A stretch of 64,000 nt of DNA from Ancylonema sp. (taxonomy: Eukaryota): positions 1 to 64,000 of the forward strand of contig JBFLGF010000041.1 of assembly GCA_050230475.1 (NCBI GenBank). Direction: 5' to 3'. A model generated the notes under the pieces. That model did no database searches and was not told where the DNA came from. It saw only the letters and a list, made by a program, of their open reading frames with translations. Positions within the stretch are counted from its first letter, which is position 1; each line of letters begins with the position of its first letter. Positions 10,014 to 59,174 of the stretch are shown in pieces. The position numbers and the translations under genes were made by a program.

Positions 10014-10092
10014 TGCGAATCTCAAGAAATATGTAAGGTTTTCCCCAACTGCAGTCGGACGGGACCGCAAGCCGAAACGCATGCAGTGAAAC

Positions 10093-11650
10093 CATTGTTG
10101 GATCCGCCCTGAAAATTTCGCCCCGCTACTCGCCCCGGGCGAGCCCGCCTCGAACGGTGCTTCGGGCTAAAATATTTTCGCCCGGGGCGGCGATATGTGT
10201 TTTTTTTTAGTTTTTTTGGCAAAAGGATCCCAAGACCACGTAGATTCTGTACATACCGGTAGTCGAGATTTTACAACACTAAGAACACCCCTAAGTACGC
10301 CCGCCATCTTTACTCGTGTAATATTATTTTTCATATCTCAATTTTTTGTCCACGCCACGCCACGGAGTCGCACTCATGGGTAAACATTAGATGATGTCGG
10401 TAGGGTGGCGGTAACCCGCATTTATTTTGTCCGGTTTCAGAATAACCCGCACTTACCCTCAAGTAACCCGCAAATACCCTAACGTACCCCTAATTACCCC
10501 CACCCTACCCTCAAAACCCCTTAAATACCCGCAAATATCCCTGAAAACCCTCAAATACCCTGAATTACCCTAGCATATCTTAACATACCCTGAGGGTATT
10601 ACACCTTATCAAAAGCTAGAAAAAAGTCCCATTCAAAATTAAAAAAAACTTCGGATTTCTATCATTTGAATGTTAAGAGAGCCTCTTTGAAAGACACGCA
10701 ATTGTAAAGCCTAGACGTTGTATACACGAGTATTTGACGGTATCGTTGTAAATAAGATGGAGCATGGACCATAGTGGAACATGGAACATAGTGCATGGAC
10801 CATAGTGACTCGCTCATCTTATTCTTCCGAAAGATCCACATTCCGCCGCAAGTGTTCCACACATTTATCATGAGATGGCTCTTCTTCACCAACCAACTCT
10901 TGCGTATCAAGTGACATGTCCATGACGAAAAATGGTTGCTACTGTGTCCGCAAGCCTCAACAAAAAAATGAGCCACCCACCCACATAGCTATCCACGACC
11001 TCTACACAAGTCCGATCCGGGCAGCCTCAAGACTCTCTAAGCCGCCAGCGACAACTTGTCGCGGACAATGGGGATGGGACTCGCGCCGTTCGTAACAAGA
11101 TTTTCGTGGGCCACGGCCAGGCCGCACAAATTCGTAACTAGAAATTTGGCGATAAGAGACCTATAAATGACAAAAAAATCCCGGAAGAACCTACCATAAT
11201 CTACCCTCATGTACCTAGAATACACTCAAATACCCTCATATACCCTCAAATACCCTAAGGTATCCCGGGTATTTTCGGGTACGAGGGTTATTCCGGGTTA
11301 TTGCGGGTTTTTAACCCGGTTTTTGGATGCCGGGTTATTTGCGGGTTAATACCTCAGGGTTACGGGTTAAGGGTTTTCCGGGTTAAGGGTAGACTGCCAC
11401 CCTAGATGTCGGACGTGTGGCGTATGGCGCACACTTTCCAAGAAGTCGGTTATGAACAAAACTGACCATCTCTCCCCATTGAGTTTTTTTTGTTTCTTTG
11501 TTTTTTTATTTTTTTGTGTTTTTGTTTTTTTGTTTTTTTTTGTTTTTGCATTTAGGTCTATGGCTCCGCCCCGCGATTCCGCCCCGCTTTTTGCCCCGGG
11601 CGAGCCCGCCCCGGGCGATTTTTTTTCTTCCCGGGGCGAAGCCAACAATG
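10093..11650 (+). mobile_element. hAT-type MITE family A, copy 1 (carries a nested element)
   Basis: TIRs cattgttgg / ccaacaatg, with a perfect 8-bp TSD agtgaaac (10085-10092, 11651-11658). It has gccccgggcg subterminal repeats, and its internal core is shared with the copies at 35786 and 58359. Confidence 0.9.
10401..11404. mobile_element. nested non-autonomous hAT element (1004 bp)
   Basis: TIRs tagggtggc / gccacccta, with a perfect 8-bp TSD gatgtcgg (10393-10400, 11405-11412) and arrays of (t)accc / gggt(t/a) subterminal motifs. The empty site is visible in the paralogous copy at ~36395. Confidence 0.92.
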
Positions 11651-11704
11651 AGTGAAACCGGGAATGATAACCAACACTTTCCAAATTAATAACCATTCTA
11701 AAAA

Positions 11705-11987
11705 GGGAGAGACTGCGGGCACCCCCCTAAGCGACTGCGGGCACCCCCCTCCGACGGCCCCGCAGTCTCTCCCTTCAAAATAGCCAAGTTAAAAAAATCA
11801 TATATTCTATTTTCTTTGCTATATTCATTTTTTTTTTTGGCGCACTATGGAGGGGACTGCCTAGTTTTTTTTCGTTTTTTTCGTTTTTTTACAATCTACC
11901 AATGTGGAGTTTAAAAAAGGGAGAAACTTCAGGCTGTCCGGAGGGGGGTGCCCGCAGTCGCTTAGGGGGGTGCCCGCATTTTCTCCC
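11705..11987. mobile_element. Mutator (MULE)-type MITE, copy 1
   Basis: ~50-bp G-starting TIRs (gggagagactgcgggcacccccctaagcgactgcgggcacccccctccg), with a perfect 9-bp TSD ttctaaaaa (11696-11704, 11988-11996). Confidence 0.92.
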
Positions 11988-12019
11988 TTCTAAAAATTGT
12001 TTAAATTAATCCTCTCTCA

Positions 12020-21213: not shown

Positions 21214-22585
21214 AGGCCCCAAAACTGTCGGCAATTATTTGTAGGTTGAAAATAGAATGAGGGATAGCCCTTAATAATAAAGTAATTCCTTGCCCCCCCC
21301 CCCCTTTTTTATTGTGAATTGTGATTTTTTTTGAGGGCCCAATAAATTATGGCCTGATAATGGTGTTCTAATATTTTTTTGGGAATTTTTTCGGAGGTGT
21401 GTTGTGTTAGGCTAACTCAAAACTATCAATAATTAATAGTTCGTGGTTGAATTGTTGATCTTCCGTCAAGACTCCCTACCTCGGGCAACCCTTTCCCGTA
21501 TTTTGCCCAAGGGGGGAATAGTATCCGTTCGACAAAGTACCATATTCTTGTTTCAAAGCTGTAAAATAACTTAATTTCATGGCCTATACCACGAGCACTT
21601 GTAGTTTGATCCAACGCCGATTCGGTAAGACGTTCAAGTTACACTTTGGAGTGAAACTCTACATCACTAGAAAGTGTTGTGTAAAGACAAAGTCACCTGA
21701 GTTTTTGTTTCATGGTAGATGTAGAAGTGTCGAGTTGGTATAAACGAACCAACGTTTTGCGGCACGCAAATGTGGACGAGCATAAATTATCGAGCACGCA
21801 TAATTTTTCCCATCTTTTCGCCTTCTAGCCCTAATTGACGAAATGTGCCCCAAATCATGCCATGACCGAGTTATTATGTGATTCATAGTTACCTAAAGCG
21901 TGTCTAGCCATCCGGCGAGCCCCGCTTCGAACTAGGGTTCGTCCTTTTAAACATATTAAAGACCAGCGTTTGATTCATTTGAAATATTCTCTTTCGCTTA
22001 GTCTTCATGTTGAATTGTCGTGATTGTATTGCACTTGTCTTTAGCATGAAGATGATTGAATATGGCCAGTATGGAACGCTGACACCTTTCTTGCTCCTCC
22101 AAATAATTTGATATCTAGTAAGCTAGTATTGCACACAAGTGTGATCGTTTACATATATAAATTGGTGCGATACGCACATATACGATACGCACAATACGCT
22201 AAGTCAGCATACGCTAAATACGCGTATTGTGCTCCCAACATATTGATACGCTAAAATACGCTTAAAAATACGCTAAATTTCGAACTTGTTTTGATTTTCG
22301 GTATGATATTGCATGTACGAAAGTTTTGACGGAGGCAGACATCATTGCGAGGTCCACGTCGTTTGAAAGTGAAATAGTGAAAGTGAAATTTATTCGATAC
22401 TGCATCGCACAAATAAAATCATATACATGTTGGCTAGTAAATGGCATCCGACCGTCCAAGTTTAAGATGGGATTCTCGCGGGAGAGATGGGACGTGTTAC
22501 TCCATCGCTAGGCCTTGCCATATATCCTATAACCAGCCTCAACTTGCTCATGTAAGCGGAATTGGTGTGTGTACGGTTTCATCCA

Positions 22586-23735
22586 TGTCATGACGCTAGA
22601 GATTGCTAAGGCTAAACCCTTCTAGATTGAACATAAACCCTTCTAGATTAATATTGTGCTATAACGAGAGTATTCGATATAACGATTTTCTAGAATTATT
22701 ACTTTATCAGAAAAATACTGAAGTACGAAATTTGTACGACTTGAAAATAACGCGTGGCGTATTTTCCAAAGTCTAGAATCCAGTAGTCTTCAACAAATAG
22801 CTGCGAGTCGATTTTTGTTAAAATTACAAGTCTCTTTCGAGTTGTCGATAATTCCGGCGATTAAATCCAGCCGTAGAACTAGAGTAATATCTCGCGCCGT
22901 TTTTCATCGGAGCGCCGAGATGAATTGTAATGTTCTAGAAAGCCAGCCTGTCGCTATCTTCGACAATTTAACTCTAGTTAACTATGCCGGTTAGCACCGC
23001 GCAACAACTTTATAAAAGTAAAATCGTACTTTCAGATCTGCCAGCTTCCGCTGTCAGATTGCGCTGTTAAGAAATCTCTTCCAAACAATCTTTTGTGTTA
23101 TCTGAATCCTTTGCAATTCTGTAAATATTGCATCCCTTCGCTTACGCGACTTCGCAACGTGCTCGTCTTCCGACTCAGCTTGACATCCGCCAGCCAGCCG
23201 GTAAGATTGCAAATCATTTTTTGCAATGTGTGTGTGTGTATTTGATCTGATTCATATGAATCTGTTGCTGACGCTCTTCCTAGGCCAGCTTGTTCATCGA
23301 CTGTAATTTCTTACATCGATTCGTTGACGCTCTCTTTGAGCCAGCAAGCGTATGTGTGTGTTTAACATCTGTCGATTTTCCTGCGTTCTCTCCCAATCTC
23401 GCTCCGAACTGGCAATTTCAGTTGTGTGTGTGTGTTTGTTGTCGCTCGCTCCGAGCCAGCATTTGTTGTTTACACCTGTGTGCTGACGCTCTTTCTGAGT
23501 CCGCATCTTTTATCGACGCGCCGTCGATACTTTGCTTTCGCACCGAAAGTAACTCTTACGGTTGTTAACCTTGATAGTCTGCTCCATACTATCTTGTTTG
23601 CTTTCTAGTATTTTCACAAACTTTTGTACTATAAACCATCTGTTAGCTCAAGTAGTTAATTTCACCAGACCGCTGAGACGTGTGATAGATATAATATTGA
23701 TATCTCAGCAGAGACTCAACTACAATACTACTTCA
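22586..23735 (+). repeat. split direct repeat A1
   Basis: Runs tgtcatgacgctagaga...caatactacttca and is colinear with 30028-31186. Confidence 0.95.
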
Positions 23736-24389
23736 ATCCGACCGCGGAAGACCTTGAATTATCAACAATTTAAAGTCAGAAAAGGTAAATTGCCTAAGAA
23801 AAAAAAAAAAAAAAAAAAAAAAAAAAGACAACTTTTCTTCTACTATTTTGTATTCGATGTGCTCGCAAGAGTAGTGCATGCAGTGGTCACGAGATAGTAG
23901 AGGGAGATTAACCAAACTCGTGATAACAAAATCTGCTGAAATTGTCGATCGACCAGCTGCACCAGCTGTCGACAATAACTGTCCACGATCATCGGACATT
24001 GATATAATTAATATCGAATCACCAGCTGCACCAGTTGTTGATAACTATATTCATACTGATATTGACAATTCAGCTGCACTAGCTGTCAATATTTCGGCAT
24101 TCCATTTGCCAACCACTCTTCTCGATAACGATTCTACAACCCAAGTAGAATTAAAAATTGAACCCAACAAATTGACACGTTCTACATCTGAACCATAACA
24201 TTCTTTGGAACGCCTACCTACAGGCTCTATTAACTTGAAACCTGTTCTGATTATTGACACAGACGACCACATCGTCGATACCACAGCACCTGTGGCTGGA
24301 CCATCGACCACTGTTCCCACTACAACGCCACCAACGCTGCAACAACATCCATTTATCGACACAAGATAAAAGGTGGGACAGACTCTACC

Positions 24390-27300
24390 ATGGCAAACCC
24401 AACGCCATTACTAACATATACTGGAGAAATTGGTGTCAAACAAGACGAGTTCATCGATAGTTTGAGACAGTTAGACCGAACTCAACAACGCGCACAACGT
24501 ATGGGGCATGTTACAGTGGGACTTCAAGTACTTGCAGCGGGTCAGTATATGAAAGGAGAAGCTCATCGAGAATGGCAACAGTTTGTACGTGACAACCGTG
24601 GTACTACTACTACGGAAGATATTCTAGATATGTACCGTGAACATAATTCCAATGTCGCATATTATCGTCTGCAAGGTAACAGGATGGACAACATGCACCG
24701 ATCAAACCCACATTATCGGCAGCAGAACCAACAAAACTGGAACTGTTCATCACTACCATTTAAAACCGTTTATAGAACTTCAGCTGCAGAATATGTCACT
24801 CAGATTGAAACATTCTTAGCACGACACAATGTCAGCGTGGCAACGACATTTGCACGTTTTAACGAACCCGCGACAATTGTTAAAGAGGCATGAGCCATGA
24901 CAGAAGAACAATTGGCTAGGAGGTATCTACCACATATTCCTCTACCACTACAACCCTATATCGACGACTGGCATTTTCGTGAAATCAGAGGAAAGTTATT
25001 AAAGAATCCACCGGATCTCCTATCACATGGAAGGAGATTATCGAGAAAGCCAACAAGGCCGAATTACTACGTATGAAACAAACGTGAGAACCGCGCAGCT
25101 GGGATCACAGATCTCCTAAACTACCTTCATATACTCCATCTACTCCATACAATGCTCCTAAACCAACAGGCGTATTGATACCACGACAGGATAACAACAT
25201 GGAATGCTACAACTGTCATCAGACCGGACACCTTTCGCGTGACTGTCCTGCACCAAGGAAACAAAACAACTTCCAGTCATCAGGTTACCAGTCTGAATAA
25301 AAAATCCAAAACCCAACCAATCCTCAGGATCACAGTTTAAGGGAGGTGCGTACGGTACTGAAAACAGACAAACTTTCAAACCACGACTTCGCCAGTTTGA
25401 TGCAAAATAGTACACCGCTGATGCATTCTGTGAATACTGCAAAGGGAAACACCACACCCGAGACCAATGTCAAAAACTTGCCAAGGCACAAAACTTACTA
25501 ACTCTCAGTACACCACCCAGTGCAAATACTCAACCCACACAAACCGGGTGGAAGACTCTTGAGACGCAGACAAGTTACTTGGCTATGCAAGTAGACGACT
25601 TGGCACGCCAACGCGAATTCGAAAACATGTCGCACCAGACAACGGACTCTGAGGTAATATTGACCATACCATTCCGTGTCAATACCTATTGTCCACCAGA
25701 CGTTCACCACGGCTGCAAAAGAGAAGAAGAAACAAGCGGAATCCATAGACAAACTACATTTCATGTTCCTGTGGTCACTCTCAGCTCTGATGCAGCCTCA
25801 CCATCTGAATCCACCACAGATTATCACACTCCAACTATTGATACACCTGTGGCTGAAACGCAAGCACCACTCTTGCCTGAAACTACACCAATTCATTATC
25901 AATCTGATCCTGAACCAAGTAGTTCTACCACTCCATACCCGGAGCCCCATCCAGAGACATTGCTTGAACAACGAACAAGAGAGGGGGAGGATTACGGTCG
26001 CAGATAAGGATACAATACAAAGATGCCAGACTCATTTGTACCTGGTTTTCCTAACATCTTGGAAGCTAACACTAAAAACATGACCCAGTTCCATGATACT
26101 GCTGCTCCTCCACCCATGCCTCTACCACAATCACAAGCTCTTCATGACATGTTTCATGACCATGTCAATGTTTTAAGTGCACAAGTGCAGATCGCGGAAA
26201 AGGCACGAGACAACGCAGCTGCACTTGTCAACTCCATGCAAGAACCTGCAGCCCAATATACCATTGGTCAAGATTTCACCACTTCCTCACCACGCAACTC
26301 TCAGAACACCAAATATGGTATTGCACTCCTTCGCAACAACCGTGGGGTGTTAACAATCATGAATGAGAAACCAAACAAGGTGGTAGTTGACAGAGGTGCC
26401 ATCAAAACCATGATTGGCAGCATCATGGCATCCAAACTTGGAATCACACCAAACATGTTGAAACCTGGGACACCATACATCACCGCATATGGTGCTCAAG
26501 AAATCAGTCTCGGTTCAACCAAGGAAAAATTTCCGATTACCATTGACAGAGGTACACCCAATCCAACCACCATTTATATGGAACTCCACATGTCTCCATC
26601 GAGAGAATTTGACGTCTTACTAGGCAATGAAATTCTTGGACCAATTGGTGGATACTTTGACCCTTGGCAACATCTATTCTTTTATAGGGCAGATTGGGAA
26701 AGGGGTGGGTTATGCCTAGCATCATTACCACTCGCAGTCCGACATCAATCCAACAAACTAGAAGTGTATATGAGAGACAGTGTTTCACCATCTCTGACCC
26801 TCACACCTGAGGATCGTGCTGCAGCTCTCCAACAGAGGGAGAAGAAGGCCAAAGCATAACAATTTGCCAGAGACAGTGAATCTGCACGTGTCAGCCCACG
26901 CCGTTCCATTCAATTCGGCTCCTAACCAAAGGAGGCCGTCTTGCCTACCCTACCACCGGTCAAAGTGGCGGCAGGTGATTATGAGGATAACTATCCCCCT
27001 ACACCTGGCTCCAAATGCATTGACCCTCCACCTGAGTTTACAACGGAGAGTGTGGAATTACAAGCAACTGAGGATACACCTCACCAATTAGTAGCACGCA
27101 ACCGACTGTATGCTGAAATCGAGGACAAAATCAAGCGCAAGTGTATTCCTGCAGCACTAGAACAAGCAAAGTTTATAGATTTCAACCAACCCATCTCATC
27201 TCGCAACAGTGTGTGTCAGACATTCTTACGCGCTGCTGGATTTGAAGAGACTCCTACTCCTATGGAATTAGATACATCAACAATTCCATCCTTAGACATT

Positions 27301-28964
27301 CCAACCAGTCCCACAGCACCTCAACATTCTCTACTTGACACTCAGTTCATTTCAACCATTCCTTTTGATAGAGACCTTTCTCGAGCTGACAGCGACACTT
27401 TCAAACCAGATGAGCTACACGAGCACACGGAGGACGAATTACGAGACCGTTACCACACTATGATCTCCCAGAAACGATTTCAGGCGGTCGCATTCGAAAT
27501 GCCCAAAACAGAGGCCGAGGCAACGATCAAACGCAAAATCACGCAACTCATCAAGGAACAAGAGTCGGTGCTTCTCTGCAAAGATGTGCAAGCTGAACTC
27601 GACATCACGACAGCTCGGGAGGACGAAAAGAGCTGATGGATCCAACGCTATGATCTTCTGACAAACTGCATTCCAAATTGGAAGACAAGATGTAGGACCT
27701 GGTCAAACTTCACGCAACACAACTCCAAGAAGTTCGCCAAGAAGCTGCTCGTCTGGAACAGAGGCTGCATATGGAAATCGGAAAGAATGTGCTGCGAGGA
27801 GAACAGTCAGCAGCAATTCCCCGTTCCTCACCTACCAGCTCTGCACCCTCCACATCCATCAATCCTGCACCTTCTCCTGTTGCAAGCACCCCTACCCAAC
27901 GAGGGGGTGATACCATGGACACATCGGAGGCCATAAAACCTCTTACAATTGCTCCGCGCAAACGAGAGGCATATTCCACTCAACCAATCTCCCCGAGTGA
28001 AGTACGTCCCGCCAACCGGCAGCGCATGCAGTCAGCATCACCAGCCGCGGCAACACATCGAGTAGAGACCTATCTGATGGATAGTCGGCGGTCTACACCT
28101 ACGACTCCCAGCTCTTCATCCCAGCTACCCACGACGGAGGACCAGGGACAACCCACCGTCTAGGAAATGGAGAGGGAGGCTATGAAGAACAAGCCACTCG
28201 GTGCATACGCACACCTGCGCGACCCCAGAGACAAAACCGATGTTGCTCAACGCCTCGCACGCACAAATACGAGTGTGTCAGATTTTACCTTTCGCCAACC
28301 ATTCGGTCGACCGGCTATGGCGCATCTCCTCAACATGGGCGCCATCCCGAAGGCCTTCTCCGGGGCAGATCGCAGCAAGTTGGCAGATTCTATCTACGCG
28401 CCAAATATCCTATATTACGGAGACACGCACTACCAAACCATCACGCGAAATGGTCAAACTTATCTGAGGGAGGCACACCTCAAAATGCAACATGACTACC
28501 AACCAATCCAACCTGTCATCACCTGGGCAGGTCCCATATTTCAAGGTGCATACGCACTTCCTCGTACCATCATCTCCACGCAACCAACTTTTGAGGCTCG
28601 TGGTCTACACATCTACATCCCCTCCGGCAACCTGGAAATTGTGGAGATCTGTCTCGAGGGAGGCTCCATCGTTTCCCACGTCACGCCGAAGACGGACGGC
28701 ATCGACACCAAAAACCGCTACCGCCAAAATCTGCGACAACTCCAACTCCGCTTTCCAGACTAGCTGCCGATGCCGTTCGATGCACCATCTCAGCAGTGCG
28801 TGCCACCTTCTCCATTCGGGATCGAGCAAGCTCTTGGACGATCTGTGGGATACACAGCTCATGGTCGAATAACCGACGCCATGCGCGCCTCCCACCTTGG
28901 CCACATGATGGACGGACGACTCATCATGTTCCCGGCGGAAATCCTCCAGGGCACCAAACCATAG
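24390..28964 (+). pseudogene. degenerate gag / CCHC zinc knuckle / retropepsin protease / unknown-domain polyprotein
   Basis: Gag-like YMKGEAHREWQQF; CEYCKGKHHTRDQC (CX2CX4HX4C, 25429-25470); VVVDRGA...FDVLLGNEIL protease. Segments share frames broken by TAA/TAG stops. No RT, RNase H, integrase or tyrosine recombinase motif was recognised. Confidence 0.8.
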
Positions 28965-29862
28965 GAATCACCCCTCACCTCGGAACAAAGGTATTTACCA
29001 ACCTCGACTCTAGGGGGGAGGGACACTAGATCCTCCGGTCAAAAAAAATCAGCCAATCCTGTCAAACCACCCGGACGGAACAAATCCAAATCCAAAGTCA
29101 ACAGTCAAATCCAAACTACGGACAAACCCATTACAGTCCAAAGCTAACCGACCAATTTATGACCTAACATGGCATCGAAACCCGGTCCACGACCACGGCC
29201 CTCAAATTCAACCAAACCAACCAAAATAAGGCCTTAAAACTCAACGGTCAAACTTGATCTTTTTGGTCCACGACATTCTGGTCTCCGGTCCTTATCTGGT
29301 CAACAGAGTAAAACTCGAAATCAGTCTACAACCATCCCAGACCTACCAAACATCACTTGGATATCAAACACACCAAGACGACAATCTCTACCAACATCTC
29401 ATGCTGCCTCTTACCACACGAGGAAACACCATCAAAAACAACATGAAGATTTCTCTTTCCTCAACCACACTTTTCACTACCAACCATCGGAACCACCTTC
29501 AGTACCACCTGTACAACTACATTTTTCTTTATCACCATATTCTACCTCACTATCCACACTCTCGGATTTTCTCAGCATACCCGATAGTCTACCAAACTTG
29601 CTGGAAGTACCATCTTCCCCAGATTATGAACATACCGTTTATACATATTTGGATGATTCTACCATTCCTACCTATGCACAAGGATCTACACCTGATCCTG
29701 ACGCATTATTCGCATTGTTAAGTACACGATTACCTTATACTAGTGATCCTGTCTTACCTTTACCTTCCAGTTTTGCCAATCAACCACGGCATTCTTTTGT
29801 CATGTTCTTATACAACCTTGTTTGCTGCTATTTCCGAGCTCCTTCACAAGCGTTCCACAACT

Positions 29863-29872
29863 AGGGGGGGGA
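29863..29872 (+). other. polypurine tract
   Basis: a-g8-a immediately precedes the TG that starts repeat B1. Confidence 0.75.
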
Positions 29873-30025
29873 TGTGAGAGCAGCCGGACCACCAAGTCCA
29901 CCTGAGACCCTTCGATCACCTACGAACATCATCGATACCAACCCAGTCAACATCATCACTTCTACACCACGAGCATTACCACATGCATCTTTTTTTCCAG
30001 GCGGCCGACTTCAAACAGCATGTCA
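29873..30025 (+). repeat. split direct repeat B1
   Basis: Runs tgtgagagcagccggacc...agcatgtca; matches 31187-31383 apart from a ~45-bp internal gap. Confidence 0.93.
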
Positions 30026-30027
30026 GC

Positions 30028-31186
30028 TGTCATGACGCTAGAGATCGCTAAGGCGAAACCCTTCTAGATTGAACATAAACCCTTCTAGATTAATACTCTG
30101 CTATTACGAGAGTATTCGATATAACGATTTTCTAGAATTAGTACTTTACTAGAAAAATAGTGAAGTACGAAATTTGTACGACTTGAAAATAACGCGTGGC
30201 GTATTTACCGAAGTCTAGAATCCTGCAGTCTTCAACAAATAGCTGCGTGTCGATTTTGTTAAAATCACAAGTCACTTTCGACTTGTCGATAATCCCGGCG
30301 AACAAATCCAGCCGTAGAAACTAGAGTAATATCTCGCGCCGTTTTTCATCGGAGCGCCGAGATGAATTGTAATATTCTAGAAGCCAGCCTGTCGCTATCT
30401 TCGACAGTTTAACTCTAGTTAACTATGCCAGTTAGCACCGCGCAACAACTTTGTGATAAAAGAGAAAAATTGTACTTCCAGATCTGCCAGCTTCCGCTGT
30501 CAGATTATTGCGTTGTTAAGAAATCTCTTCCAAACAATCTTTTGTGTTATCTGAATCCTTTGCAATTCTGTAAATATTGCATCCCTTCGCTTACGCGACT
30601 TCGCAACGTGCTCGTCTTCCGACTCAGCTTGACATCCGCCAGCCAGCCGGTAAGATTGCAAATCATTTTTTGCAATGTGTGTGTGTGTATTTGATCTGAT
30701 TCATATGAATCTGTTGCTGACGCTCTTCCTAGGCCAGCTTGTTCATCGACTGTAATTTCTTACATCGATTCGTTGACGCTCTCTTCTCTCTGAGCGAGCA
30801 AGCGTGTGTGTGTGTATTAAACATCTGCCGATTTGCCCGCGTTCGCTCCGAACCGGCAATTTCATTTGTGTGTGTGTGTTTGTTGTTGCTCGCTCCGAGC
30901 CAGCATTTGTTGTTTACACCTGTCCGCTGACGCTCTTTCTGAGCCAGCATCTTTTATCGACGCGCCGTCGATACTTTGGCACCGAAAGTAACTCTTACGG
31001 CTGTTAACCTTGATAGTCTGCTCCAGACTCTCTTGTTTGCTTTATAGTATTTTCACACACATTTGTACTATAAACCATCTGTTAGCTCGCCCTCGGCGTT
31101 AAGTAGTGAATTTCACCAGACCGCTGAGACGTGTGATAGATATAATATTGATATCTCAAGAGACTCTCAATCTGCAATACTACTTA
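30028..31186 (+). repeat. split direct repeat A2
   Basis: Second copy of 22586-23735. Confidence 0.95.
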
Positions 31187-31383
31187 GTGAGAGCAGCCGG
31201 ACCGCCAAGTCCACTTGAGACCCTTCGATCACCTACGAACATCATCGATACTAACCCAGTCAACATCATCACTTCTGTACCACGAGCATTACCACATGCA
31301 TCTTTTTGAGAAACATCCGGGAACAAAAGGGAACAAAGTATGAAGAGCATCAGTCCGGGCGGCCGACTCCAAATAGCACGTCA
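31187..31383 (+). repeat. split direct repeat B2
   Basis: Runs gtgagagcagccggacc...agcacgtca and is followed by the TSD tcca. Confidence 0.93.
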
Positions 31384-33039
31384 TCCATCGCCCCATCCGC
31401 AATAGTCTTGATCTCTTACAAGGTGCTAAACTTGTGTACGTGTTCACCGATTTTCGGATCCTTGAAAAGTTCAAGCAGGCAAGTGTATTTTCCTCCGTGG
31501 ATTACAAGCAGGCATTTCCCATGTGGCCCAAAAGCGACAACAAGTACTCTTAAGAAGATGCGTGGAGGCTACTCATGATATACGTTCTCATGTTGACAAG
31601 AGGGAAGAATATTCTTCCCTCTTATATTCCCTCTTTAAAGGAACTCTGAGGAATCCTATTTTATTTTTTGAAGACTTGGTCGAGCGATAGGCTTCGTGAA
31701 GTGTTTATGAAAAACATGCACCAGATAATGGAGTAGGATTCATGTAATTATTATTGTAAAAGATTGTTTGTTAAATTTAAGTCTTGCAGTTGTTAACATC
31801 TTCTAGCATTTCTATTTTTATCACCTTACTTTCTAAGTAAAAACGGAAGTCGCCTTGGAGCCTTTTTTGGAACAAGTTGTAAAGATTGATGAAAATGAAA
31901 GCAAATAAAAAGAAGCTAAGAAGAGTGGGTCTTTCAACGAATGCCCTATTCTCGCACCAGCAAAAAGGAATAAAACATTTGCACATCTAATGGTAAGACA
32001 TGCGCGTGTCATGTATTTCATGGATAAATGCCTCCGGTTGATGCCCAATTTGATAAGGATAGGCACCCGATGTTACTATTCTACTTCCGAAGATGTGTGG
32101 GGTCTAAAACCATGAAAAAACGCATATTTCTTGACAATACGCGTATTTTCTAATCGCGAAATTTTCAATACGAGAAATACGGCGTATTGTGAACCCAGCG
32201 TATTGATAGCGTATTGCGTATTGTGCAACCCTGATATACACCACCTTAAATAACCCCTCTCCCCACTTCCCACTCCTCACTTGTCACTTCCTAAAAATCT
32301 TTACTCACTACGAATAACACACTTCTAAGTACCAACTTATACCAAAATTTTAGCCATTTTGTCAATTTTGAATTTCACCATCTCAATCAATGGACGGTTG
32401 GATATGAACATGCGATTTCATTTTTTTTATTTTTTTTAATATTGCTACAACTTCGCAAGCCACATATGACACATGTATATCACACGTGTGAGGTACATAA
32501 AAAACATGAAGCCCCACGTCCTTTTTCCCCGCGGAAAAATTGCCTTGCAAAAAAACCCGAAAAGTTCCCGGGTCGGACCGAGTCCCGAGTCGGGACCCGG
32601 TCCGTCCGCGATCCGAAAATCCAATGTTGCCGGTCCGTGCAACTAAGATTAAAAATCTAAAATTTACGACGACAAAATATTATTATATTATTTCAAAGAG
32701 AGGGTGTCTGCCCAACGATGAATCAATCCATCACTCCAGTTCGTATCGAAGACAAGGGTGCAATGACTCGGTGATCTATCCTCGTCGTACTCCTTGCTCG
32801 TCGGTTACTGCGTCTTTTAAAACACGGGCGATTCAAGCACCCCTTCGCACATAGGCACCTCAAACTTTATTCGCGTTGCTTCCACAATCTGGGTTGACAA
32901 CCAAAATCAACCCTTATTTTAGTGAGAAGTTAAAATAGTGGATCCAACAACACACACTAGAAACACCATTGCGAGAGGATCAATAACCAAAATGAACTAC
33001 TACCTACCTAGGTCCTCATGAAGAAAATAATGCACTCAC

Positions 33040-35104
33040 CTCGATGTTGTGAGGGTCGTTCCACGTTCCCTCCGCTCCCACCGGACCGTTCCGTCACAAG
33101 TACAGGTCCCGCCAAGAAACGTGGACAACTCACTGCCAACCACGCACGGAACCTTTGAGCATGCGTGCCGCTCTTGTTGTTCTCCACCGATACAGAATTC
33201 CACACACATCTGACTTCGGTACCCTGGGGCCTTCTATTTCTCCCAACAGACTCTATTTAATTGGAGAGGAGACTGAGGAGAGTGGATTGTACCTTGGGTG
33301 GATGATGTCCAACAACTTTGATTTATCGGTGCCACATATCTGCCACACATAGGGAGGCGCAAGAGAGGCTCATGGGACAACGCAATATAGGTTTCCAATT
33401 TGAAATTTATGGGCCGCACATGCCAAGAACAGTCCTTTCTGTCGGGTAAGCAATCAAGGCCGCACACCTGGATCCGGTGGTGAATCTCCTTTGCGTACAA
33501 GGCATGTTTGATCCAAGTCTCGAATACCCGCTGTGTGGGCCCCACATTGACCATGTAGACGTTTCTAAGAATCTGCACAAGTTGAGAAGCCATCCTCGGG
33601 ATCGTCAATTCACTTCCTATACGTCCCCCACGATACATTCAAGGGGTACACCTTCAACCACGTGGCGCTTGGTGAAGGTTGGCATGGTGATGGCATCACG
33701 AGGTGTCCCTCATGTTGCCTTACGAGAGCAATCACACGGCAGCCATGAAACCAAACCCGGAGTGATGCATCCCATGAACAACATTCCTGGTCAACAGCCA
33801 TAAGCCCGTGAGCCCTGAGCCCCGAGTCCGCCCATGATAAGTAGCCTCTTCACCTGAGGAAAGTACGCTTCCACATTCATCAATTGTTTCATGACGTACT
33901 CAGAAGTCCCCCAGTTCTGCACTCAAGGCATAGGTAGGAAGTCCGCTCCAAAATCAGTTTGCCACCGCAACATCATCATTAAAACATACGGTCGGACAGA
34001 GCAATCCAATATCCCTCCTTCGCTTTTCCCTTGAAGAGCCATACTATGATGCCATGCTTCTACGAGGTACAGAATTGTGGTGGTATGATATCGTTAAAAC
34101 AAGGTGCAATAAATACTTTGGAGCTTCCCTCCTCCTCCATTCATCATGCTTCCTTGTCTCCCACCATTCTTACCAAGCCTGAAAAGTCATAGATTCTGGT
34201 GGGCGTGGTGGAAAGGATGCCCAGCAGCCGCAGCGCAAGCAGGAAATTTGACGTTGATCGTATGCTCCAGCTCCTTGACATAATGCCTCATGATCCGATC
34301 CATGGTGGTGTGTTTCAGGAGTTGGCGAGTACTCATTGCGGCCCAACGCACAATTTGCACGGGCTGCCCCTTACGATCCACTCCATGAAAACAGTAGGGG
34401 AGATAGGGGTGCAGCTCAGGCAGCTCCGAAAAGGTAAACTTCTGAAACCCTCCCAAATGCAGAACATTATGAAAAGGTGGGCAGTTGTACAAGTTCTTTG
34501 ATGTCTGGACAGAAGGTATCACAATCTGTCATCGGATTGCACACTCAGATTGAGCGCGAGAGAAGCGTCTCATCGTCAGTAGAGCAGGGGCCAGGAGTAC
34601 CTCCAGGAGGGAGTTTGTTCCGAACTGCTCCCGCCACTGAAGCCATTTGATCCACTTCCTCTTAGACTCGAGTAAGTCTACTTTTCTCGGATTTATGAAC
34701 CTGGATGAGAGACACGAATTTTCTCAAATTATACTGACCGATGACAATCAGCCGCTAGAAGACAAAATTGAAGCCACCGATGCATGCCCACATATTGAGC
34801 CACCCCAAATACCGCACATAGTTTACATAGTTCACAGTCCGGAACAGAACATTGTAGACATCTCATTTCGTAATAGGGGGAAGTACTACGAGTTTGAATG
34901 CTGCTATGTCCAACAGAACCCTGATTACCTAAAAAGAATCCCGTAGTTGTCATGTTTTTCAGGTAAGAGACTCGCATCCTTCAGAATATTCCGAAAACTC
35001 TCCACTGTCTCCACCCACCACTCACGCACGTCAACCTGAGTGGCCAGCAGCTTTTCTTGAGCCCCCAACTGCTGTTGACCTTCCGCGCGACCGAAAGAGT
35101 TCAT
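33040..35104 (-). pseudogene. SEC14/CRAL-TRIO phosphatidylinositol transfer protein (SFH-like) with two apparent frameshifts; 3' end unresolved
   Basis: Exons: VESFRNIL...LLPEKHDNY, W..WLQWREQFG, FHGVDRKGQPV, VKFPACAAAAG, SKLLDII, ELSTFLGGTCTC. Frame breaks occur near 34201 and 33072-33093. Confidence 0.8.
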
Positions 35105-35388: not shown

Positions 35389-35777
35389 CATAGATCTACA
35401 CGCCCGTTAAAATCTCCACCGGGCGGCGCCCGCGGGCGAATTCGCCCGCGAGCGAAATTTGGGCGGGAATATCCCGCCCGCAGTGGGGTATATAGAGCTT
35501 TTTTAGGGTTCTGGTGTTTTCAGTTTGTAAAACTCCACACTGATCGAAATAAAAAAATAAAAAGTGCTAATATCAACAACATAATTTCATCTACATGTTT
35601 TTTTTTTTTTTTTAAGAATCTCATAAAACGTCTAGAAGCTATGCTTCTTTGAACTTGCTGTCTTGAAATCCCGAAATTCAGCGCGCCCGGGATGGACGGC
35701 GGGGCGGCGCCCGCGGGCGGTATCGCCCGCGGGCGAAGGCGGGCGAAAATATCCCCGCCCGCGGGCGGGTATATCTT
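35389..35777. mobile_element. hAT-type MITE family B
   Basis: Ends catagatctacacgcccg / cgggcgggtatatctt, flanked by ctcaaaac (35381-35388, 35778-35785), with gcccgcgggcg subterminal repeats. Confidence 0.75.
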
Positions 35778-35785
35778 CTCAAAAC

Positions 35786-36608
35786 CTACAGATGGCTCCG
35801 CCCCGCAAATTTCGCCCCGGTTTTTCGCCCCGGCCGAGATCGCCCCGGACGGCGCCCCGGGCGAATTTTTTTCGCCTGGGGCGTGGCCATGGAGGTTTTT
35901 TAGTTTGGGAGCGACTGCGGGCACCCCCCTCCGACTGGCCCGCAGTCTTTCTCTTAAAATAAGGTAAGTTCAAAAAACTACAGCTTCCAAACGTTTTGCG
36001 CTATTTAAAATATTTTTTTCTATGTACTGTAGAAGGGACTGCTAACTAAATATTAACATTTTTTTCATATTTGTTTACCGATCAATGTGGAGTAAAAAAA
36101 AATGGAGAGACTTCGGGCTTTTCGGAGGGGGGTGCCCGCAGTCGCTTTGGGGGGTGCCCGCAGTCTCTCCCTTTTAGTGTAAAAGGACCCCAAGACCACG
36201 TAGATCATGTACATCTTTTTAAGAATTGAATCCGATAAGTATTCGAGCTTTTATAACACTAAGTACACCTGCCATCTTTACCCGTGTAATATTCTTTTGT
36301 ATATCTCAAGTGTTTTTTTTTTTTTTTGGTATTTTGTTTTTATCGCATTATACCACGCCACGCCACGGAGTCGGACTCATGGATGACACTAGATGATGTC
36401 AGACGTGTGGCGTATGGCGCACATTGTGCAAGAAGTCGGTTTTGAACAAAACCAACCCTATTTCCACATTGCGGCATTTTTATTTTTGTTTGTATTTTGG
36501 CCTAAGGCTCCGCCCCGAAAATTTTGCCCCGTTTTTCGCCCCAATCGAGCTCGCCCCCGGCGGCGCCCCCGGCGAAAAAAAAAATCGGCCGGGGCGGGGC
36601 CAACTGTG
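35786..36608 (+). mobile_element. hAT-type MITE family A, copy 2 (carries a nested MULE MITE)
   Basis: Ends ctacagatggctccgcccc / ggggcggggccaactgtg, with TSD ctcaaaac / ctccaaac. The core is shared with 10093-11650. Confidence 0.85.
35907..36171. mobile_element. Mutator-type MITE, copy 2
   Basis: Same TIR family as 11705-11987, with 9-bp TSD ttttagttt / ttttagtgt. Confidence 0.88.
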
Positions 36609-44425: not shown

Positions 44426-44856
44426 TGTGAGTGCTTTCTTCTGCCATCGATGCAAGAATAAAGCACAATTCTCTCAGACAACTCTTGAATCGACAGATCA
44501 CGTCATTACAAACGTTCACACAACAAAAGTGCAACTTTGAAGTAGAAAAGTCTGATTACAGAATTCAGCATACAAGCTCAGACCTAGTACAGTCGATTGT
44601 TACCTGGTCAAAGAATCTACTGGTATTGAAACTACTTCGTCAACTGCCAATCATATCCAAGCATTCTGCCACATCAACTAGTTCTTATCGACACTTGTGC
44701 CAGATGGCCAAGCAATCATTGAAACAAGGACATCGGCCTGCAGCCGGCCTGCAGCCTGCCCCTGCATTTGCTGAATAACGATAAAACTAAAGCTAAATTT
44801 CCGGTATTGCTAAAATCGATATAACGACAAAAGTTCACAGCCCCTGAAAACTAACA
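44426..44856 (-). repeat. copia 3' LTR
   Basis: Direct repeat of 49432-49884 with small indels. Confidence 0.95.
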
Positions 44857-44946
44857 CCCCCTCCCCGGGTACTTTTGTATTCCCCCTCCAAAAACGATAA
44901 CCAAAAACGATATCGATTTTACAAACACAAGTCGACAAATTCTTTT

Positions 44947-47900
44947 TCATACACCAACCCCACCAGATCAAAATTCTTCTTCAACACCTTGACAGACACT
45001 GCTTTAGTCAACGTATCAGCAGCCTGGTCTTCACTCTTGACAACTGTAGACTGATCTTTTTCTTGGACACCCTCTCTCGAATGGAATGATACTTGATCTC
45101 GATGTGTTTGGAGCGCTTGTGGGAAAACAGAGGATTCTCGGCAAGTTTCAAAGAACTCTCATTGTCTCCCAGCAATAGCACACTCCCCCCACCAATACCC
45201 AACTCACTCCTTTTGCATCTGGCTCAAATAAATGGCCTCATTTCCAACAGCACTCATGCCCAAATACTCAACTCTCACAGCTTTGGTGTGTGACTGTCTC
45301 CAGGAGACCACTTTTCCAGCTCACAGCAGCTCCTCCACTAAGAAAGACATAGCCAGTTCTCCCCTTCCTAGTGTCGACGTCGTCACCATGACTAGCATCT
45401 GAGTAGCCGATGACCGGCAAATCACCTCCTTTCTTATACATCAGCCCCAAATTGACAGTTCCCTTGAGATATCGCAAAACTCTCTTTACCCCCTCCCAAT
45501 GCTTGTCCCCTGACTGCTGACTGTATCGACACAAGGAGTTAACAGCGGCTGCCAGATCAGGTCTTGTTCCGAAAGTGAGATACAGCAAACTGCCCATTGC
45601 AGACTTGTAGCCCACACCCTCTATTCCAGCAGATTCAGAAGCAGATCCCCAGTTTGCATAAAATTTTACACCCAGCTCAAGAGGAGAAGCAGCAGAATTG
45701 CAATCTTGCATCCCAAACTTGGTGAGGAGATCTCTGGCATATTTCTTTTGCATCAAAAACACGTGTCCATCAGACTGCCGTCGAATCTCAAGCCCCAGCA
45801 AGAATTTTGCTTCCCCCAGTTCTTTCATGTTATACTTCTTTCCCAATCCTCTTTTCACCCCAAAAATAGTATCCAGCCTGATGCAGAGGAGAAACACATT
45901 ATCCACATAGAGCGCCAAGTAGAGTGCTTCTGGCCCTGCTCCCAGAATATAAAGGTCAAAATCTGAAGCGAGACGATGAAACTGCAAGCTTTTCAGCACG
46001 TCGTCGATGTGCTGATTCCATCCTCTCGGTGCCTGCTTGAGGCCATACAAGCACCTGAGTAGTAGCCACACCAAGTATGCTTCACCAGGCCCACACGTGC
46101 CGTCAGGGGCCTCCATGTACACCTCCTCTTCCAGTGGTGCATAGAGAAAAGCTGTCGTTACATCCATCTGATGCATGTGTAGACCCCTGGAAGCTCCCAT
46201 GGCAACAAGTTGGCGAATGCTCTCAAAACGAACAGTTGGAGAAAAGGTCTGATCGTAGTCCTCTCCCTCTACTTGACTGAACCCCTTAGCCACAACTCTT
46301 GCTTTGTATTTTTCTACAGAACCATCTGCATTGAATTTGATTTTGAACACCCACTTTGACTTCACAACTTTCTTCCCCTTCGGCCTTGACACAAGTCGAT
46401 AGACCTGGTTTTCTTGTAGACTTGTCATTTTTGCAGCCATTGCAGCTTTCCACTCAACTGCTTGCGGGCTGTTAAGAGCTTCCTCGACAGTCGTTGGTGT
46501 CTTTATCTCACTTTCCAAGTTGGCCACAAAAGCAGCAGCAAATCTGTTGGGATGCATTCCTTTGTTCTCCCTTGCAGATCGACGAATAGGCTCGGGATCA
46601 TCGATAGAAGTTTCTGAAAAGTTGTCGTTCATGCACATTGGATTAAGAGGAGTAGCATCATCTGGATACCATTCTGGACCATCTTCGAGATGATATTCGT
46701 CTTCATCGCCTCCACTAGAATCGCTGACAAGTTATGGAAGATCTGCACTCTGAGGAAGAGGAGATCTCGGAAGCTGTGGCAATGGATTTCCCACAGCATC
46801 AGGGATCTCTTCATCGACAAAATTTGGATCGCCATAGGCAGGTTGCCCACCTCCATAAATGCCCCCTCCGAGGCCAACACTACCCCCTCCTGCTCCTTGA
46901 TGAGCTGCATCCAGATCTGGCCATGACATTTTTGTTTCTGCAACTGGCTCATGCACTCTTGCCTTCTTGCCAATTTTATGACCCCTCCACCAGCTTTGCT
47001 TGACAGATTCATCGAAGTCTGCATGACCAGTGCCAACGTTGTGTGCTTTGTTCGTTGCAGGATCCCAGACTCGGTAGCAAGGACTGTCGGGATTCCATCC
47101 AACTAACACACCAAGCCAAGCCAGCGCACTCATTTTCCCAGCCCATCTTGTTTCCCTCCAGTCGCACATAAACTTAGCAGCCGAATGATCGAAGATGATC
47201 GACCTTTGGCACCTCTCCTGACCACATCTCCTCTGGAGTCCTTGGAAGACCGCTGACTTGACATCGATTTCTGAGATATGAAGCTAAGGAGATTGCTTCT
47301 GCCCACAGAGACCAGGAGGAGAAGTTGCATGTGCAAAAGCATAGAGCGAGCCCCCTCTCTTGCAACGTACGATTCGTGCGCTCTGTGATTGCATTGCCTT
47401 GAGGAGTGTTTGGCGGAGTTGTCTCATGTCTGATGCCTCTGTTTTTGAGCCACTTCTACAAATCACCATCGATAAACTCTCCTCCTCGATCTGATCTCAT
47501 TTTTTTAACAGGTTTCCCAGCTCGTCTTTCCGAGATTGCGATCCATTGCTTCAGACGAGGAGCTGCATCATCTTTGCTGCGAAGAATTTCCACCTAGGAT
47601 TTTCGGCTGTATTCATCGACGAGCACCATGTTGTACACTCCTCCCCCTATTGATACTGAATTGAACGGCCCTGCCAAGTCCACCGACACTCTTCCCAGGC
47701 AGACTTGTTCTCCTGCTCCAGCTTCTCGTTGAGGATGAGGTTTGTCGTGTGCCTTCCCCAGCTTGCACCCTTCACAATTTTGCAGAACTCCTGAGATGCC
47801 TCCTTCCAGTCCTCGTACCAAGATGTTGTCGTGCCACATTTTTGAGCACTCTCTCATTTGCCATGCCCAAGTCTTGTGTGCAGGAGGTTGATTTCGGACA

Positions 47901-49402
47901 GTAGCTACAACAACCTTCCCCTTCAGTAAGTTGCTGATGTCGAACCGGTGTGCAGATGAGAGTTTTTCGACGTGTCGATGTTTCTTGCAGAGTGCAGACT
48001 TGTTGTCTTGATTTGCTGTAAATTGGAATGATGCCACCAGCTTTTCCACTGCAAGTGTAAGACCACCCTGCTTCTCTGGCTTTCTGACCGCTGAACAAAT
48101 TAATGCGCATCCTAGGAATGTACAAACATTTCTTGAGTGTTACTCCTCCACACTCTCCCTCAGTATTCAACTCAATTGTTCCCCATTATTTCACTCGCAC
48201 ACTTCCGACCAGATGATGCATGATGACCTCGTGTGGAATGTCTTCGAGGATTTTGAAAAGATTTTTCTGCCCACAGGAATGGTGACTGGAACCATCGTCG
48301 AAAAGGAAATCTTTCTCTGCATCATCATCATCCGCAACATTTCCTTTCACAGATTTCACAATGATAGCTTCTCCATGACCACAGCTCTCCTCCTCATCGA
48401 TTTCGCCAACGAAAGTTGTTTTTCTCTGCGTACCCCCTTTCTTTGCATTCGTGGAGCTTCGTTTTTCTTATCGAAACATGTGAATTCCACATGACCAATG
48501 GCTCCACAATATCTGCATTCTTCGTTTTTCTTGGAGCAGCCTCTCTGCTATAGTGACTTGTCTCTCCACAAGTATAGGAGGAATGTCCTCCACTTGATCC
48601 ACTGCCTCCACCTCTGCCTCCACGACCACCTATGATTCCACGATTATCTGCTGAATACCCCCTGAATGTACCCCTGCCTCCACGATTGTCGATACCACCA
48701 CCTCTGCCTTGGCTTGAAAATTTTTGTTGCGCTGACCACTTAGCATAGTTTGCCTCTACAACTAGTGCCTCAGCATCTTTGACATCTTTTTCTTTCTTGT
48801 CGTCCAGCTCATCCATTCCCATCTGCCCCCAGATCCAGCTGATCCCAGGTGCCTCTTTCTGTCCATAGTAAAGCTTCTTCAACATGCCGTATTTTGTTCT
48901 TGACATGCCAGCAAACAATGCCATCACCTGGTCTTCTGCGCTGACTAGAAATTTTTGATGTACACACTCTCTGATGATCGACAAAAAGGTATTCTTGATT
49001 TCTCTGACTGGCATCTTTTCATCAATCTTGAAAGAGTTCAGCTTTTCTTTTGCAATCTGTCGAAGTTCTGGAGATACCTTGTCATACTCCTCTGTCAGAT
49101 AGTCCCACATCGCCTTTGGATCTCGTTCAAATTGTTCAAGTGATGTCGATGTCGTTACTGACAAGTTGCATAAGTAGCATGACTGCCTTCTTTGATCTTT
49201 TGCGGAAGCTTCTGACATCAAGTGTACACTGCTCCATTTCTGCTTCATTTGTTGGCCAGTGTTCATCACCATATCTGGCTGTAACCTCAGCTGGAATAGT
49301 CTCTGTTCCTTTGCAGATCTCAAGGCACTCAACATCATCAAGAGTAGCTGAGAGTAGCTGAGGCCTTAGATCTCCATGCTTGTAAGGTAACTTTATCTCC
49401 AT
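44947..49402 (-). pseudogene. copia gag-pol (gag, PR, IN, RT, RNase H) with frameshifts and stops
   Basis: CGETSH knuckle; CEGCKLGK...VDLAGP...VDEYSR integrase; QMDVTTAFL, LYGLKQAPRGW and LYVDN (YVDD mutated) RT; YSDAS and RSKHIEIKYH RNase H. Confidence 0.95.
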
Positions 49403-49431
49403 CCAGAATGCAGTAGCTCTGATACCACTGT

Positions 49432-49884
49432 TGTGAGTGCTTTCTACCGCCATCGATGCAAGAATAAAGCACAATTCTCTCAGACAACAACTCTTGAATC
49501 GACAACAGCGACAGATCACGTCATTACATACGTTGACACAACAAAAGTGCAAGTTTGAAGTAGAAAAGTCTGATTACAGATTTCAGCATACAAGCAGACC
49601 TAGTACAGTCGTTTGTTGCCTGGTCAAAGAATCTATTGGTATCGAAACTACTTCGTCAACTGCCAATCATATCTAAGCATTCTGCCACATCAACTAGTTC
49701 TTCTTATCGCGACACTTGTGGCCAGATGGCCAAGTAATCAATTGAAAACAAGGACATCGGCCTGCAAGCCGGCTTGCAGCCTGCTGCCACCTGCATTTGC
49801 TGAATAACGACAAAACTAAAGCTAAATTCCGGTATTGCTAAAATCGATATAACGACAAAAGTTCACAGCCCCTAAAAACTAACA
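49432..49884 (-). repeat. copia 5' LTR
   Basis: Adjacent to the PBS through a 4-nt spacer. Confidence 0.95.
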
Positions 49885-58358: not shown

Positions 58359-58874
58359 CATTGTTAAATTTTAACCCGGGGCGCCGTCCGAGGCGTTTTC
58401 GCCCGGAGCGAAAAAACCGGGGCGAGATTTTCGGGGCGGGGCCATAGGCCAAAATACCCAAAAAAAACAAAACTGCCGCAATGCGGAGATATGATTGGTT
58501 TTGCGAAAATTGACTTTTTGCACAATGTGCACCATACGCCGCAAGTCGGACATCATCTAATGTCACCCATACTCACCTACTCCGTGGCGTAGTGTGGTAT
58601 AATTCGAGAAAAATAAAAATAAAAAAAATAAAACTTGAGATACACAAAAGAATATTACACGGGTTAAGATGGAAGGCGTACTTAGTGTTATAAAATTTTA
58701 TCTACTTGTTGGATTTGACTTTTAAAAAGATGTACATGATCTACGTGATCTTGGGGTCCTTCTGCAGAAAACCTAAAAAACCTCTATAGATCCGCCCCGG
58801 GCGAGATTTTTTTTGGTCGGGGCGCCGCTCGGGGCGAAAATCGGGGCGAAATTTTCGGGGCGGGGCCAACTATG
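58359..58874 (-). mobile_element. hAT-type MITE family A, copy 3 (inverted, no nested insert)
   Basis: Reverse complement of the family A core (e.g. atgtacatgatctacgtgatcttggggtcct). Ends cattgtt / ggggccaactatg; the TSD is not recognisable. Confidence 0.85.
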
Positions 58875-59174
58875 GTCCGCGACTGTGCTCCCAATTCCCT
58901 CGGCTACCCCAAAGAACTGATGTCAGACCCGTTGTAGCGTGCTAATACCTGGCATTCCTCGATATAACGGTTCTGGCGTCCGACTCGTCCGCGTACTTGC
59001 ATCGCGTCGTACCGAGGCAACGTGTCGGAATTTCCGAGTCGTCCTTCACCCCCCAAGTTCCCGCTCCGCGAGTTCGAATTCTACAGAGCAGCTCTGGCAG
59101 AGAGAGGTGCATACTTCTTGTAATCTACGTACTCCTGTCAGAGGCCGCCAACGGATCTTATTAGATCACAGACC

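Follow-up and report, generated by a model that had tools for sequence, protein, structure and literature searches.

The 64,000-nt stretch of Ancylonema sp. DNA analysed here (contig JBFLGF010000041.1, positions 1 to 64,000; hereafter the window) carries a decayed split-repeat Ty3/Gypsy retrotransposon copy at positions 22586-31383. The DNA of this copy was probably made in the manner of long terminal repeat (LTR) elements and closed by joining of its two ends, after which a DDE integrase supplied by a helper probably opened it at an LTR-internal palindrome and inserted it. A broader claim is slightly more likely than not: that a widespread green-lineage Ty3/Gypsy clade has moved its integrase sites from the cDNA ends to a pre-formed CA-GC-TG palindrome within the LTR, with the 2-LTR circle, which for retroviruses is nearly a dead end, as the obligate integration substrate.

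The element has the order A1-internal-B1-GC-A2-B2, where a GC dinucleotide at 30026-27 separates B1 from A2. Its termini are TGTCATG on the left and CACGTCA on the right, and TCCA flanks both ends as a target-site duplication (TSD). BLAST and reading of the flanks confirmed this order, the TG...CA ends and the doubled TCCA, all of which had been described in an earlier note on this DNA. The A1 repeat that it described is likewise present, although it ends at 23733 rather than 23735, the 'CA' beyond being the start of the likely primer-binding site (PBS). A1 (22586-23733) and A2 (30028-31185) share 91.5% identity, with 47 substitutions (24 transitions and 23 transversions) and 15 indels. B1 (29874-30025) and B2 (31187-31383) differ by nine substitutions where aligned, all of them transitions, and B2 is about 45 nt longer. 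No further copy of the element was found in the window.

The two halves of the B/A joint form an inverted pair at six of seven bases, and the joint is one of two such sites in the 1.3-kb B-A unit. Its GC spacer is kept at the inner joint and is missing at both genomic ends. As the 8-mer TCATCCAT is common to both junctions, the duplication can be read as 4 to 8 nt long; the 4-nt reading is preferred because it is the only one that yields TG...CA ends. At least four extra matching bases occur in 1.8% of random placements (P ~0.02).

The copy shares the split direct repeats of DIRS-order elements, which are otherwise characterised by the lack of a TSD and by a crossover core at the joint and at both ends, whereas here TCCA is doubled and the GC is absent from the ends. 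It also has the polypurine tract (PPT), the TG...CA termini and a TSD within the 4-6 bp range of canonical Ty3/Gypsy elements. Such elements, however, have two whole LTRs at their ends, of which the 3' one starts after the PPT, with the TSD outside, while the ends of the copy sit at the B/A joint. Two other descriptions of the layout were rejected. A alone is not the LTR, since no PPT precedes A2 and no TSD follows it, and the internal part is not an unrelated insertion in an AB-AB dimer, since the PBS-like 12-mer opens it and the PPT closes it.

The joint and the genomic ends in relatives

The proposal of the earlier note that the integration ends derive from the B/A joint of a DDE-integrase lineage, and not from the ends defined by the PPT and PBS, is borne out by relatives that encode an rve integrase and carry the same joint. 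Related loci (designated L) comprised the best 80 of 175 metagenome loci and 39 from genome contigs. Locus L032 starts at A: upstream of its rve-coding frame, unique non-B sequence stands right before TGTCATG, and downstream there follow a PPT, 200 nt of B and CGACA-GC-TGTCATG. Locus L106, a member of the group closest to the window protease, ends at B: it reads PPT-B(106)-GC-A(360)-B(106) and closes with CACGACA, after which come 21 nt of non-A sequence. In L031/L034, A is joined exactly to B and, separately, runs into the internal part. The A|B junction was seen in three families, with 0-2 nt lost. None of the loci examined has the start of B or the end of A against host DNA, a weak negative given that most repeats are collapsed in short-read contigs. 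The A-start pattern had no occurrence in metagenome contigs, and a half-site scan for further genomic ends was dropped as too unspecific. Several loci (L026, L087, L105 and L049/L050) came out of assembly as circles that comprise the internal part and a single B-A unit; these may be collapsed repeats or real 1-LTR circles.

Related loci contain 19 occurrences of the strict pattern GACAGCTGTC in a total of 492,590 nt; 30 shuffles gave 0.57 on average, and 317 kb of phage loci gave none. Among the 52 family loci with an integrase that were counted, 21 have at least 2,300 nt of downstream DNA, a threshold set with the data in view, and in 18 of these the palindrome GACA-GC-TGTC, which matches the B1/A2 joint of the copy, lies behind a PPT and downstream of the integrase. 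Of the remaining 31, with less DNA downstream, 5 carry it; none of 30 outgroup loci has it. Joint carriers are spread over the clade with DNMT and PHD domains in a FastTree integrase tree (70 sequences, midpoint root, weak deep support). The core GxCA-G(C/T)-TGxC is nearly invariant in 24 aligned joints from loci selected by the motif, while no conservation is seen just behind the G tract, where 3 of 19 loci have TG. L093 is a decayed, interrupted copy without a joint and is uninformative.

Kinship was traced through the protease, which as query retrieved 104 proteins. Nine of these are fragments 68-90% identical to it (five were looked up, all on short contigs), which points to a family that is multi-copy in this species or a closely related one. 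Ten carry a C5 methyltransferase (DNMT) of the type found in this element family, including GAQ93292.1 of Klebsormidium nitens. The domain scans for reverse transcriptase (RT), rve and Phage_integrase that the earlier note had called for found none of the three in the copy; among 41 polyproteins reached through one DNMT-bearing match, 30 list rve and none Phage_integrase. No recombinase was found in 23 open reading frames (ORFs) from related loci. The hybrid with tyrosine-recombinase elements that had been suggested is not upheld, as neither the copy nor the kin scanned yielded a recombinase. In a small database, the protease matched L060 and L061 with E values of 4e-13 and 4e-14. A word-index search with the protease gave no longer proteins, and no relatives were found among viral contigs by protease or pol alignment; DNMT alignment gave weak methylase matches there, which were used as a control. 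Judged by its protease, the window copy appears to belong to the lineage of KnitGypsy-Dnmt3; its protease kin are Ty3/Gypsy elements that carry Dnmt3 and rve and lack a tyrosine recombinase.

The relatives vary in domain order, the DNMT lying before RT in some and between RNase H and integrase in others (L060/L061 vs L043/L041). L024, L026, L031, L035 and L038 have extra frames of 380-760 aa, of no known family, between integrase/PHD and PPT. The contigs of L101-L106 are filed in prokaryote metagenome-assembled genomes and are eukaryotic retrotransposons of the clade, i.e., bin contamination.

Coding content, repeat divergence and priming

The copy has a single decayed frame from 24390, with about ten stops and several shifts, that comprises a gag-like part, a CCHC knuckle (zf-CCHC, Pfam E 7e-6, above the cut-off) and a retropepsin (gag-asp_proteas, Pfam E 4e-5, below the cut-off). 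The gag, protease and PPT (Table 1) had been recognised previously; a Dnmt3-like relic at about 28640-28950 and an identical 272-bp block shared by A1 and A2 had been missed. The relic scores 16.7 bits against a profile of 42 family DNMT domains (E 1e-6), the best of 2000 shuffles reaching 5.3; its C-terminal 58 aa are matched, and about 210 profile positions, including the catalytic motif, are absent. A capsid reading of the frame at 28164-28760 was rejected (Atlas 0.88 to capsid clusters, low recognition), and the protease had no match in the PDB. Neither six-frame Pfam searches nor profiles built from relatives detected RT, RNase H, integrase, PHD or recombinase in the copy. It needs a helper. 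The copy appears to be a decayed, non-autonomous derivative of a split-repeat Gypsy element of the KnitGypsy-Dnmt3 type and not a full member. A second PPT-like tract at 29012-29023, 850 nt before the main PPT, may be a relic of a deletion that removed pol.

The 272 identical bp begin a few bases past the likely primer. An identical gap of at least 279 nt between A1 and A2 arose in 0 of 100,000 simulations. The uneven divergence could stem from age and conversion, possibly via strong-stop cDNA, or from recombination of two subfamilies.

The 12 nt after A1 pair with 23050-61 at 10 of 12 positions and with A2 at 9 of 12. No tRNA and no TGG-type PBS were found in the window. In L034, the 11 nt that follow the A end are exactly complementary to part of A; a 13-nt pair in L105 lies where A ends in L106, and L022, L043, L049 and L087 have self-priming pairs of 15-17 nt. 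These pairings fit self-priming of the Tf1 type, as far as complementarity can indicate it. The leader also contains a 26-nt A run (23799-23824) just past a GT donor-like site, and the leader of L105 has an A run as well.

Table 1. Features of the split-repeat element and its flanks (window coordinates).
Position	Strand	Feature	Basis
22582..22585	+	Left target-site duplication TCCA	sequence
22586..23733	+	A1 repeat, opening with right half of joint palindrome (TGTCATG); likely promoter, R and U5	
23011..23016	+	TATA-like TATAAA, about 35 nt before likely transcript start; presumed function	
23050..23061	+	Probable 5'-terminal 12 nt of the RNA, also self-primer; within A1, the closest complement of the 12 nt that follow it	
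23065..23336	+	Block of 272 bp with the same sequence as 30514-30785; probably R, and probably homogenised after insertion	
23734..23745	+	Likely self-priming PBS adjoining A1 end; no TGG tRNA-type start	
24390..25300	+	Decayed gag-like frame; CCHC zinc knuckle at about 25202-25249	
26359..26637	+	Protease resembling retropepsins; DRG at the active site here, DSG in four near-identical fragments	
26860..28640	+	Decayed reading frames, no Pfam match	
28641..28949	+	Remnant of a Dnmt3-like domain, matched clearly at its C-terminal end and weakly at its N-terminal end	family DNMT profile
29863..29872	+	Polypurine tract A-G8-A, just before B1	
29872..30025	+	B1 repeat, PPT to left joint half (CATGTCA)	
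30019..30034	.	B/A joint, a palindrome (CATGTCA-GC-TGTCATG); probably a pair of integrase sites 2 bp apart	
30028..31185	+	A2 repeat	
31180..31192	+	A2/B2 junction: PBS-defined end joined to PPT-defined end, 1 base short of exact; likely 2-LTR junction	
31186..31383	+	B2 repeat, end CACGTCA	
31384..31387	+	Right target-site duplication TCCA	

Proposed integration route and rival explanations

In the proposed route, an RNA would start at about 23050 in A1 and run into A2. Its first 12 nt or so, complementary to the sequence just after A1, would pair there and prime the minus strand as in Tf1, and the PPT would prime the plus strand to give a linear copy [B-GC-A]-internal-[B-GC-A], in which B-GC-A is the LTR. 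Joining of the ends of this copy would create the A|B junction found in the three families. The integrase would then cut after CA on both strands of CA-GC-TG and insert the two CA-3' ends 4 bp apart, with loss of the GC and duplication of TCCA, the scar that is present in the window. A 2-LTR circle opened at the joint of its 5' LTR would read A-internal-B-GC-A-B; since this arrangement, alone among the products, keeps the promoter, a downstream A and an intact joint, the cycle would be repeatable. The ends defined by the PPT and PBS, which reverse transcription should make, are not conserved as TG and CA and meet at A2/B2.

Several observations weigh against this reading. Under the model the repeats should start out identical, whereas here A and B are 5-6% apart outside the identical 272-bp block, so that later conversion is required. 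The 10/12 match of the PBS is reached by 85 of 1,967 control 12-mers (4.3%), the predicted pair does not form in the folded RNA, and self-priming pairs exceed all 60 shuffles in just 5 of 14 loci. The duplication is ambiguous in length (4-8 nt), target and joint match over 3+1 nt (TCA + T), and both ends together with the duplication are seen in this copy alone. The flank of L106 is just 21 nt long, and in most relatives, which come from short-read contigs, the repeats are collapsed. The count of joints depends on the retrospective length cut-off and includes several near-duplicate loci as well as the doubtful L090; three of the 21 loci lack the joint (L024 and L035 apparently end before the repeat, and L039 is partial). 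Kinship is drawn from a protease of about 25-35% identity, the DNMT relic and the joint, and no helper element was seen in this genome. The circular intermediate is one that we infer, no circle, transcript end or integrase activity having been observed.

The main rival dispenses with the free circle. The integrase would cut the linear copy at the joint of its 5' LTR, keep hold of both halves and insert them, and host repair would join the end of A to the start of B on the chromosome. Identical layout and scar would result, the loss of 0-2 nt at A|B junctions in three families is what end joining would leave, and a circle was not seen in this analysis. Such a route would, however, leave a chromosome break at each insertion, while the circle route has a precedent in HIV integrase, for which cleavage and integration of 2-LTR circles at their palindromic junction have been reported (PMC4372172). 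Circle-free joining is held to be improbable. Somewhat less improbable, though still unlikely, is a composite origin, in which a 1-LTR circle of one subfamily recombined via the R region into a solo A-B unit of another. This would account for the 5-6% difference in outer A and in B around an identical middle, as well as for the equal numbers of transitions and transversions in A but not in B, and diverse copies do exist (68-91% protein identity). The better pairing of the PBS with A1 than with A2 (10 vs 9 of 12) fits instead one element decaying in place, and the ten or so stops indicate age. A composite origin concerns the history of this copy, and a mechanism at the family level is still needed.

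A role for a tyrosine recombinase, whether the copy is a DIRS-order element of the PAT, Ngaro or VIPER type or a passenger of a recombinase supplied in trans with the palindrome as crossover site, is very unlikely. The A1-B1-A2-B2 layout is the same as that described for these elements (PMC4157794, PMC8547959, PMC6681497), and a palindromic joint with short target homology suits a recombinase. Against this, the enzyme is absent from the six frames, the 41 kin polyproteins and the 23 ORFs of related loci, and rve is intact in kin; moreover, the GC spacer is missing from both ends and bases of the target are duplicated, whereas tyrosine-recombinase elements are described as lacking a TSD in the available accounts. 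Least probable of all is a one-off event in which an ordinary [B-A] LTR element gave rise to a stray 2-LTR circle that broke and was captured by host repair, or a misassembly of the order. The short homology between target and joint (TCA + T) and the uneven divergence of the repeats would suit such an event. The break, however, hits one of just two such palindromes in the 1.3-kb repeat, the one conserved in the clade. The copies of A and B differ by 5-6% and are therefore not an assembly duplicate. The earlier note had named derivation from ordinary [B-A] elements as the finding that would overturn its reading; this did not hold, as relatives with rve share the joint, L032 and L106 have the same ends, and K. 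nitens has the same layout.

If the preferred route, with integrase acting on a 2-LTR circle, is true, split direct repeats have a simple origin: they follow from circle integration by any enzyme and are no mark of tyrosine recombinases. Such elements may have been misfiled as DIRS, or overlooked by LTR finders that require two matching end repeats. Retrovirology has long asked whether 2-LTR circles can be genuine precursors of integration, and here a whole integrase-coding clade seems built for the circle route. The 10-bp joint site is testable in vitro, and an internal integrase site acting on circles could serve as a tool. The copy itself is dead, and its interest rests in the family that it indicates.

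Surroundings of the element and comparison with known systems

The flanks of the element (22120-22585 and 31384-32250) form a decayed DNA-transposon-like unit with clustered ATACGC/GCGTAT motifs on both sides. The frame across the empty site may resemble a hAT dimerisation motif or hAT-like transposase remnant, though neither half has a Pfam match; open-frame length across this site did not distinguish one from two copies of the TSD. Elsewhere, the window holds an ordinary Copia element on the minus strand (44426-49884; LTRs 90% alike, RVT_2 and gag matches), a broken CRAL/TRIO (SEC14)-like fragment, also on the minus strand (34200-34450; Pfam E 0.04), and a GC-rich inverted-repeat family resembling miniature inverted-repeat transposable elements (10091-12010, 35421-36597 and 58369-58876; 63-90% alike). 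The host has the look of a green plant or alga with introns, and a peptidase encoded in the window is 50% identical to a fern protein.

Circle or dimer junctions with two abutted DDE ends, whose 2-3 bp spacer is lost on insertion, are found in IS3, IS30 and IS21, which are bacterial DNA transposons without an RNA step. Tf1 and Tj1 integrate at the ends of their LTRs, whereas the window element ends inside its LTR. These self-priming Ty3/Gypsy elements, which like the copy have a PPT, have a PBS complementary to the 5' end of their own RNA (PMC4600332). The PBS of the copy may be of this kind as well.

The closest described element is KnitGypsy-Dnmt3 of K. nitens, whose repeats are stated to be arranged as in DIRS and whose domains are those of Gypsy (de Mendoza et al. 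2018, Fig. 4c legend; PMC5890265). The layout with Gypsy domains is therefore already in print, and the new architecture suggested for the copy is not new. The available text and three supplements of that paper make no mention, for KnitGypsy-Dnmt3, of termini, TSD, joint palindrome, priming or mechanism. As far as it is described there, KnitGypsy-Dnmt3 shares with the copy the order A-coding-B-A-B, a related protease and a Dnmt3-like sequence after the protease; the copy differs in lacking RT, RNase H, integrase and PHD and in retaining only a relic of the DNMT. Gypsy-7a_cRei of Chlamydomonas reinhardtii, compared by description only, is a PHD-finger Gypsy element with 'LTR subparts' and unequal LTR ends that is active in laboratory strains, and no DNMT is among its domains as listed in the available text (PMC9940879). 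No account of the palindrome, self-priming or a circle route in the clade was found in the literature outside subscription journals, Repbase and theses.

The available descriptions of PAT, Ngaro, VIPER and TATE (PMC4157794, PMC8547959, PMC6681497) agree with the copy in the A1...B1A2B2 order and in integration from a joined B/A site. They differ in having a tyrosine recombinase and in being described without a TSD, whereas the kin of the window copy have rve, and the copy has a PPT, a TSD and TG...CA ends. The retroviral cleavage of 2-LTR circles resembles the proposed route in that integrase cuts a palindromic CA...TG junction in a circle; in that case the junction is the true one between two LTRs and the reaction a side route (PMC4372172), while here a fixed LTR-internal joint would apparently be the sole integrase site.

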